From a phage, in the NCBI GenBank assembly GCA_014435945.1, contig GCA_014435945.1_4088.1: a DNA stretch of 64,000 bases. One strand, written 5' to 3'. Positions 20,711 through 21,027 of the stretch are shown here, in pieces (position 1 is the stretch's first letter; each line of letters begins with the position of its first letter). A program made the position numbers and the translations under genes. The notes below the pieces were generated by a model. It worked only from the letters and a program-made list of their open reading frames with translations, was not told the DNA's origin and made no database searches.

Positions 20711-20736
20711 CTTCGAAAATAAAGAAAAAAAAGATG

Positions 20737-20764
20737 TTGACAACGCCGAATGATGTGTTATAAT
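20737..20764 (+). promoter_or_regulatory. strong sigma70-type promoter P1 (TTGACA-N16-TGtTATAAT)
   Basis: consensus -35 and extended -10, A-tract upstream. Confidence 0.6.
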
Positions 20765-20828
20765 GACCACCACGAAGCAAGTTTTCAAAATCACAAGATG
20801 TGAGATTGAAAAAGAAATAAAAAAGTTG

Positions 20829-20856
20829 TTGACAAGCCTGAACGATGTGATATAAT
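20829..20856 (+). promoter_or_regulatory. strong sigma70-type promoter P2 (TTGACA-N16-TGaTATAAT)
   Basis: near-duplicate of P1 about 92 bp downstream, flanking AAAAAG-N-TGTTGACAA. Confidence 0.6.
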
Positions 20857-20958
20857 GACCACATCAAGACGGCAAAGAGAAATGCCTTTTTAAATACACG
20901 GATGATTCATGAAGTAACAAAGGAACTGATAAGTTAAAAATTCTTTTAACACAGTTCC

Positions 20959-20987
20959 TTTACTTTTGCCCACGGATTGGCTATAAT
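20959..20987 (+). promoter_or_regulatory. possible weaker promoter P3 (TTTACT-N17-TATAAT)
   Basis: about 40 nt upstream of the MoxR-like gene; overlaps the 3' arm of a 10-bp inverted repeat (20919-20928 / 20952-20961). Confidence 0.3.
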
Positions 20988-21027
20988 AGAAACCTAAACG
21001 ATTTTATCCAACAAAAGGAAAATATAC

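Follow-up and report, generated by a model that had tools for sequence, protein, structure and literature searches.

Phage T7 promoters A1, A2, and A3 and the rrn P1-P2 promoters of E. coli are strong sigma-70 promoters arranged in tandem, and those of rrn are also accompanied by UP elements. In phage lambda, the leader that spans pR′ to tR′ constitutes the 194-nt "6S" RNA, whose counterpart in Stx phages, StxS, is functional by itself, and lambda also produces the oop RNA. We analyzed a 64,000-nt stretch of phage DNA (GenBank assembly GCA_014435945.1, contig GCA_014435945.1_4088.1; hereafter the window), focusing on a 317-bp intergenic spacer located between the open reading frames (ORFs) at positions 20333 to 20710 and 21028 to 22356. 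This spacer carries two tandem promoters (P1 and P2), a weaker third promoter (P3), and an inverted repeat, and it precedes a gene for a MoxR-type ATPase. In the related Pectobacterium phage CBB, the hairpin orthologous to the inverted repeat has been listed as a terminator called Torf215, with the sequence AGCACTGAAAACTCAGTGCTtTTCTTTTT (Table S8 of PMC5259590).

The spacer probably serves as a transcription-unit boundary, wherein a conserved cassette consisting of a promoter, a short leader, and an intrinsic terminator has had its promoter tandemly duplicated in this lineage. The control module itself is real, conserved, and unannotated, and its components are of familiar kinds. Sequence similarity identifies the source of the window as an Asteriusvirus-type jumbo coliphage: the 1.2 kb surrounding the spacer are 99.6 to 99.8% identical to eight jumbo coliphages with genomes of 354 to 384 kb, including Turkey3, EC.P1, Ecwhy_1, and fEgEco12, and the spacer region is ~86% identical to that of the 121Q/PBECO4 group (genus Asteriusvirus).

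As proposed in an initial annotation of the sequence, P1 and P2 are near-identical TTGACA-N16-TGnTATAAT promoters, each of which matches the consensus hexamers at 12 of 12 positions (Table 1). The two are spaced 92 bp apart, start to start, and both carry TG at −15/−14. The two promoters reside in the copies of a 54-nt direct repeat (20717 to 20770 and 20809 to 20862) that are 81% identical. Each is preceded by the AAAAAG-N-TGTTGACAA sequence that the annotation had also reported, along with an A-tract resembling an UP element; the 22 nt on the 5′ side of each −35 element are 82% A+T and include runs of six to eight adenosines. Consensus −35 and −10 elements 16 to 18 bp apart, a TGn extension, and an A/T-rich tract at about −40 to −60 together are the hallmarks of sigma-70 promoters with an extended −10 and an UP element. 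The exact pattern TTGACA-N16-TATAAT occurs three times on the two strands of the 64-kb window, compared with an expectation of 0.05, and none of 100 shuffled sequences reached three occurrences. Thus, chance can be excluded as the origin of P1 and P2, and the earlier suggestion of a strong sigma-70 control region is upheld both by these statistics and by conservation. Among four Asteriusvirus lineages, 61% of the columns are invariant for P1 and 86% for P2, and the P1 −10 element of the 121Q clade reads TACAAT.

To examine this arrangement in more distant phages, homologous spacers were recovered through the ATPase gene from annotated phages, IMG/VR, and metagenomes. This yielded 22 distinct regions, including those of RaK2, Cronobacter phage GAP32, fHe-Yen9-04, and a CBB-type contig, in which the identity of the ATPase ranges from 93% down to 54%. 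All share a common order: the upstream stop codon, a TGnTATAAT promoter, the leader, the hairpin, a U-run, a second small hairpin (hp2, present in 20 of the 22), the Shine-Dalgarno sequence, and the ATPase start codon. The promoter is followed by a terminator after 24 to 100 nt in all 22 regions, and in every genus with a single promoter the distance from the −10 element to the stem is 28 to 35 nt. The promoter of the CBB/GAP32-like genera has the form (G)TGAAACG-N13-TGGTATAAT, whose TGA also ends the upstream ORF, whereas the −35 element of the sequences labeled L011 to L013 is GGGACA. The CBB authors place the TGAAACG promoters, a "divergent RpoD-like" class, before DNA-synthesis genes, and they scanned only the 100 bp upstream of each start codon (PMC5259590). 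This limit on the scan is perhaps why the promoter before Torf215 was not listed. A scan of IMG/VR for the pattern of a U-run followed by hp2 gave 34 matches, of which only three RaK2-like contigs carried a terminator in front, the rest being chance or coding sequence.

The number of promoter copies differs across these phages. The distant genera have one, RaK2 has one perfect TTGACA promoter plus a decayed second copy (TTGAAT-N17-CATAAT), Asteriusvirus has two, and SP27 has three. In SP27 (L008, positions 700 to 890), the P2 unit has been duplicated in tandem as an exact 95-nt copy that extends from the A-tract to the sequence ending in ACACGGA, resulting in a 410-bp spacer. Judged by eye, the P1-specific segment ACAAGATGTGAG appears to have been copied from the 5′ part of the P2 leader, ACACGGATGATT, and to have decayed since. 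The resemblance of the P1 leader to a decayed P2 leader and the fresh copy in SP27 indicate that the promoter unit has been duplicated at least twice at this locus.

The 10-bp inverted repeat noted previously is perfect, in that its arms AAAGGAACTG and CAGTTCCTTT are complementary at 10 of 10 positions. Its nominal 23-nt loop in turn holds a second perfect repeat of 7 bp (GTTAAAA/TTTTAAC), such that the full structure is a 17-bp interrupted hairpin (minimum free energy (MFE) of −16.1 kcal/mol, z = −4.2) followed by the U-rich tail UUUACUUUUG. In an alignment of the 22 sequences, 86.7% of the helix cells are paired, and changes on both sides are found for seven of the 11 pairs. The covariation score is 0.306 compared with 0.122 for shuffled alignments (none of 500 reached the observed value), slid controls do not exceed 0.128, and RNAalifold agrees. 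Depending on the lineage, the arm reads GGAACUG, GGCACUG, AGCACUG, GACACUG, GCACAGC, or GGCUCC, and RaK2 lacks one base pair of the helix, having lost a matching position from each arm. The arms are 4 to 23 nt apart across the 22 regions, and a U-run reading CU(C/U)UUUUG follows the hairpin in every one of them. In the distant genera, a 10-bp stem is followed by CUUUUUUG, as in AAAGCACUGA-CGCAAA-UCAGUGCUUU-CUUUUUUG (−13.1 kcal/mol). In addition, the record for phage G17 includes the orthologous hairpin as a terminator called by ARNold, and Torf215 of CBB is an independent ARNold call. Within Asteriusvirus, the hairpin is the best-conserved part of the spacer, with 90% invariant columns versus 68 to 74% in the flanking ORFs. 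The fact that the arms covary, that their spacing is free to vary, and that a U-run always follows indicates that the inverted repeat acts as RNA rather than as an operator with fixed spacing, and on these sequence features we assign it as the stem of an intrinsic terminator.

The sequence immediately following the U-run is also conserved. Hp2 has the form GCC(C)A-CGGA-U(U)GGC in the window and is present in 20 of the 22 homologues, wherein at least seven different stem sequences covary (examples include CCAAA/UUUGG, UCAGA/UCUGA, GCUUA/UAAGC, CUCAA/UUGAG, and GCUU/AAGC). Its mean stem length is 5.45 bp, compared with 3.23 bp for shuffled flanks (maximum of 3.95 in 500). Because hp2 is maintained beyond the U-run, RNA that reads through the terminator is implied to exist and to matter. 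On the 5′ side of the stem, a single NGGA sequence, mostly AUGGA, is located 7 to 19 nt before the stem in 20 of the 22 leaders; this element is called GGA1 in the window.

The proposed third promoter that overlaps the repeat was likewise recovered as P3, which matches the consensus at 10 of 12 positions and whose −35 element shares the final 3 nt of the 3′ arm. A good P3 −10 element is found only in Asteriusvirus; the corresponding sequence is TGGTATAAT in JNE01, is degraded to TATCAT in RaK2, and is absent from other genera. Since P3 is limited to the Asteriusvirus/RaK2 lineage, it falls outside the conserved core. Separately, a TTATAAC/TTATAAT motif recurs just 5′ of the Shine-Dalgarno sequence, ~15 to 25 nt before the ATPase start codon, in distant genera (L011 to L013, L017, L021, L022, and L026). 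This motif could be an extra post-terminator promoter in the role of P3.

In the mechanism that we propose, host sigma-70 RNA polymerase would initiate at P1 (near 20771) and at P2 (near 20863), and the nascent transcript would fold into the interrupted hairpin (20919 to 20961) before the polymerase meets the U-rich tail. Most polymerases would be released at this hairpin, giving RNAs of ~105 nt from P2 and ~200 nt from P1, and the same terminator would close the upstream late structural operon. Those that read through would enter the MoxR-ATPase gene, giving an mRNA whose 5′ untranslated region (UTR) contains the terminator hairpin and hp2. ATPase transcription that is independent of the terminator would be added in Asteriusvirus by the weaker P3, located 3′ of the terminator. 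Activity of the promoters, incomplete termination, and the supply of the ATPase gene by read-through are inferred, as is any role for the short RNAs. In Asteriusvirus, either ATPase transcription or the dosage of the short RNA would be raised by each of three features: the break in the U-tract, the duplication of the promoters, and P3. Since a promoter precedes the hairpin that has been annotated as terminating the upstream gene, an abundant short RNA that is absent from annotations is implied. The short leader RNAs envisaged initially are retained as a prediction. Early expression of the region is plausible. In distant genera, the equivalent promoter belongs to the TGAAACG class linked with DNA-synthesis genes.

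Several observations weigh against this proposal. The U-tract in the window, UUUACUUUU, is interrupted, and only four of the 10 pairs in the outer stem are G-C, so termination may be weak in this phage because of its broken U-tract and A/U-rich stem. A simple terminator scan did not report this hairpin, whose nominal 23-nt loop exceeds the limit of the scan. Moreover, the third perfect TTGACA-N16-TGnTATAAT promoter in the window (50129 to 50156, + strand), which shares the core TGTTGACAA...GAATGTGATATAATG with P1 and P2, leads to a 770-aa ORF (start within 50171 to 50196, end at 52483) through an ordinary UTR of ~30 nt that has no terminator. The lack of an intervening terminator there means that the promoter-terminator cassette is no general rule in this phage. 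The 50129 promoter is divergent from a minus-strand ORF at 48590 to 50098, and the N-terminus of the 770-aa product is Clp-like, as judged only by eye. Our search of the literature for transcriptomes of Asteriusvirus or Alcyoneusvirus found none, and so start sites, termination efficiency, and timing are predictions; the noncoding RNAs (ncRNAs) described for PA5oct map to unrelated loci, and the papers on RaK2 and fEgEco12 do not discuss promoters. Finally, the placement of the promoter before the terminator may reflect a frozen accident and not selection for this design.

Other explanations must be weighed against a boundary cassette of this type. The initial annotation had raised the possibility that the inverted repeat binds a regulator, and a perfect 10-bp repeat that overlaps the −35 element of P3 might indeed be the DNA operator of a dimeric regulator that controls P3. 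This reading is very improbable and was not sustained by the comparison, since the half-sites are not conserved as sequence (GGAACTG, GGCACTG, AGCACTG, GACACTG, GCACAGC, and GGCTCC are all found) but covary, the arm spacing is inconsistent, the orthologous hairpins in G17 and CBB are annotated as terminators, and the hairpin is kept outside the Asteriusvirus/RaK2 lineage, where P3 is absent. Alternatively, the short terminated RNA may itself be functional, either as a trans-acting small RNA (sRNA) or as a protein-binding RNA such as a ligand of CsrA or Hfq, with the ATPase expressed mainly from its own promoter and the tandem promoters raising RNA dosage. Genes for sRNAs are classically recognized by an orphan promoter joined to a canonical terminator, the RNA of the distant genera would be only ~55 to 60 nt and would have a U6 run after its strong hairpin, and the tightly kept leader length, the single NGGA, and the repeated duplication of the promoter unit all fit this idea. 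However, the leader is poorly conserved save for the start motif and the NGGA, it offers no long seed, the GGA has been lost from the P1 copy, and the retention of hp2 beyond the U-run indicates that read-through RNA is also under selection. A permissive Rfam 15 scan of positions 20300 to 21400 returned only chance-level matches (best score of 23 bits versus a gathering score of 60, all E-values at least 0.78). We regard a self-sufficient RNA gene as rather unlikely.

A regulated attenuator is less likely still. In this scenario, a factor encoded by the phage or supplied by the host would override the terminator at a set time to switch on the ATPase/VWA operon, as in the lambda pR′-tR′ leader with Q or the nut sites with N. 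A strong promoter, a close terminator, and then a gene is the established layout of the lambda late leader; conserved motifs (ATCAAG/TTAAGA and NGGA) lie in the initially transcribed region; and most distant genera have no recognizable consensus promoter after the terminator. On the other hand, inspection of the folds by eye found no conserved antiterminator pairing in the leaders, and the long-range GGAUGA/UUAUCC pairing is specific to Asteriusvirus. The search for an antiterminator covered the neighboring genes and recognized none there, and the 125-aa ORF has no Pfam domain. In most genera the leader RNA before the stem is only ~24 nt, which leaves little room for a sensor, and the ATCAAG motif is common at many promoters that have no terminator. 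We also considered a leaky boundary without further regulatory meaning as an alternative to the cassette reading.

Another proposal, which we regard as doubtful, is that the cassette is a previously unrecognized RNA element of RaK2-like jumbo phages whose two A(N)GGA motifs, one on either side of the terminator, would engage host CsrA or an equivalent phage RNA-binding protein. The in vivo CsrA motif determined by crosslinking and immunoprecipitation (CLIP) is AUGGA in apical loops (PMC5207318). The loops of hp2 read CGGA, TGGA, ACGGAA, or CGGAT on stems of 3 to 10 bp in 20 of the 22 homologues, so the GGA is presented in a loop as CsrA sites require, and GGA1 (ACACGGAUGA) fits (A/U)CANGGANG(U/A). 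However, the consensus WCANGGANGW occurs 13 times in the window compared with 6.4 expected, which is not significant alone, and random single-stranded sequence is expected to yield the CsrA consensus roughly every 10 kb. Hairpins with an NGGA tetraloop on 5 bp are not enriched in the 352-kb genome of phage TH47. The Shine-Dalgarno sequence is AAGGAA in Asteriusvirus, RaK2, and L011 to L013, and GGU or GAAG in other genera, so the GGA that overlaps it is not conserved in the distant genera; GGA1 and hp2 are the motifs that flank the terminator. Because the consensus occurs near chance, genome-wide enrichment is lacking, and the Shine-Dalgarno GGA is unconserved, we treat CsrA binding as a lead and not as a finding. 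If correct, an abundant short RNA could titrate CsrA, or else CsrA bound to the read-through mRNA could clamp the terminator at its base and thereby tie the MoxR/VWA operon to the physiological state of the host. Binding of CsrA by the GGA motifs would represent a new route of post-transcriptional interaction between phage and host. A leader peptide was also examined and rejected: the 11-codon ORF ATGATTCATGAAGTAACAAAGGAACTGATAAGTTAA is shortened in phage A4 (ATGATTCACTGA) and is reduced to two to six codons or absent in other genera.

Table 1. Features of the spacer and its flanking genes, with positions in the window.
Feature	Position	Strand	Basis or remark
Upstream gene, 125-aa ORF, phrog_15638, function unassigned	20333-20710	+	last of late structural block
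A-rich UP-element-like tract 5′ of P1 (AAAATAAAGAAAAAAAAGATG)	20715-20736	+	82% A+T in 22 nt before −35; within direct repeat D1
P1, TTGACA-N16-TG-n-TATAAT	20737-20764	+	12/12, extended −10; TTGACA 20737-20742, 16-nt spacer, TG 20756-20757, TATAAT 20759-20764; predicted start ~20771-20772
Hairpin in P1-specific leader, UUUUCAAAAUCACA / UGUGAGAUUGAAAA (inverted repeat I3)	20782-20812	+	MFE −9.8 kcal/mol, z = −2.4
A-rich UP-element-like tract 5′ of P2	20809-20828	+	sequence
P2, TTGACA-N16-TG-n-TATAAT	20829-20856	+	12/12, extended −10; TTGACA 20829-20834, 16-nt spacer, TG 20848-20849, TATAAT 20851-20856; predicted start ~20863, inside ATCAAG start motif
GGA1, ACACGGATGA	20896-20905	+	sole NGGA of leader; 19 nt before terminator stem
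Predicted intrinsic-terminator hairpin	20919-20968	+	outer stem 20919-20928/20952-20961; inner stem 20933-20939/20944-20950; apical loop ATTC; tail ACTTTTG 20962-20968
P3, TTTACT-N17-TATAAT	20959-20987	+	10/12; predicted start ~20994
hp2, GCC(C)A-CGGA-U(U)GGC	20968-20981	+	GGA in loop; directly after U-run; also P3 spacer in this phage
Shine-Dalgarno region of ATPase gene (AAAGGAAA)	21014-21021	+	sequence
Downstream gene, N4 gp24-like MoxR-type AAA ATPase, 442 aa	21028-22356	+	Pfam/PHROGs
DUF2201 gene (VWA-like domain and putative metallopeptidase)	22432-23841		3′ of ATPase gene

The related genome of TH47 (352 kb, 98.6% identical) carries 28 perfect TTGACA-N16-18-TATAAT sequences, all on the strand that matches the + strand of the window. 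The majority lie ~30 to 100 nt from a start codon, and for a few the first ORF is farther away or was not detected. P1 and P2 have the longest leaders among the 28 sites, at 265 and 171 nt, respectively. An ATCAA-like start motif follows the −10 element in 16 of the 28 promoters, compared with a background of 11%; P2 has this motif and P1 does not. A GC hairpin directly follows the start at several of these promoters. Many of them share a spacer motif, AGTACTG, right before TATAAT, and a separate subclass with GATGTGATATAAT consists of P1, P2, and the 50129 promoter. Two other TH47 sites, near 105605 and 144211 (L043), have unusual leaders. The first of these promoters is followed by at least 400 nt that have no plausible ORF and encode a strongly structured RNA, which is a possible ncRNA gene. 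The second is followed by a long hairpin and CCCUUUU before its Shine-Dalgarno sequence, and would be another instance of a promoter, a terminator, and a gene in succession.

The ATPase gene also has a terminator-like structure at its end. Immediately after its stop codon is a 12-bp hairpin, AAGGAGGATACC-ACAT-GGTATCCTTCTT, followed by TTAT (22377 to 22404, + strand), which is overlapped by a TTGACA-N17-TATCCT match (region 22372 to 22404). A terminator of CBB, Torf216, is located at the corresponding position (Table S8, PMC5259590). With this second hairpin and its CBB counterpart, the ATPase gene appears to be bracketed by terminators.

In fEgEco12, the upstream neighbors encode tail tube, head closure, small terminase, and several virion proteins, and the same-strand genes downstream encode the ATPase, a protein labeled "HNH endonuclease," small ORFs, and thymidylate synthase. 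Both genes downstream of the spacer are annotated in RaK2 as phage N4 gp24-like and gp25-like. Labels in relatives of the phage clash: the 125-aa ORF is called "transcriptional regulator HdfR" in fEgEco12, Turkey3 has a feature named "transcriptional regulator MoxR1" in the region that is presumably the ATPase, and in CRJP21 the sequence that matches the ATPase carries a "dTMP thymidylate synthase" feature. The only identity that Pfam and PHROGs support for the 442-aa protein is a MoxR-like AAA ATPase, and the 125-aa ORF falls in a PHROG of unknown function. The HdfR label, and with it a regulator function for the 125-aa ORF, was rejected on account of this assignment and the absence of a Pfam domain.

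Additional structures were observed near the spacer and farther downstream. The upstream ORF has its stop codon within a 13-bp inverted repeat, TTATTTTCGATGC / GCTTCGAAAATAA (20690 to 20722, 92% complementary), that precedes the A-tract of P1, and a similar pairing is found in RaK2 (TTTTTGAA...TTCGAAAA). At 26367 to 26396, a 13-bp hairpin between A- and T-runs is predicted to be a terminator on both strands, and it sits at the switch of gene orientation and cumulative GC skew near 26 kb. No tRNA or tmRNA genes were found in the window.

The RaK2/121Q group consists of 350-kb phages that include several candidates for phage therapy, and the locus provides a concrete and testable cis-regulatory module within them. 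It documents a change in promoter copy number among one, two, and three by tandem duplication between close relatives. Moreover, two compact sigma-70 promoters that are predicted to be very strong, combined with a natural attenuator, are potentially useful as parts.

The arrangement of P1 and P2 resembles that of T7 A1 to A3 and rrn P1-P2 in that strong sigma-70 promoters of the same orientation, ~90 to 125 bp apart, head a transcription unit. Unlike those systems, P1 and P2 are obvious recent duplicates (81% over 54 nt) whose copy number varies from one to three between close relatives, and their transcripts are predicted to meet a terminator after ~100 nt, before entering any gene. This latter feature is shared with lambda pR′-tR′, StxS, and oop, wherein a strong constitutive promoter is followed by an intrinsic terminator before the genes, and a short RNA is the predicted default product here. 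In contrast to lambda, neither an antiterminator resembling Q nor a Q-binding element or sigma-dependent pause element was identified, antiterminators having been sought among the neighboring genes only. The leader has neither sequence similarity to that of lambda nor an Rfam match, and the downstream gene encodes a MoxR ATPase instead of belonging to a lysis or late operon.

Like the CsrA/RsmA sites described previously (PMC5207318), hp2 displays (A)YGGA(U) in an apical loop of 4 to 6 nt on a stem of 4 to 6 bp, and GGA1 agrees with the consensus given above. Established CsrA/RsmA targets have two or more sites, one of which typically overlaps the Shine-Dalgarno sequence; at this locus, the GGA in that position is not conserved in distant genera and the CsrA sites are predicted only. 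Compared with CBB and GAP32, the window has a canonical TTGACA −35 element and a duplicated promoter unit, and CBB listed no promoter between ORF215 and Torf215. Nevertheless, Torf215 is the ortholog of the inverted repeat, and the promoter of the distant genera fits the TGAAACG-N13-TGGTATAAT form exactly (PMC5259590).

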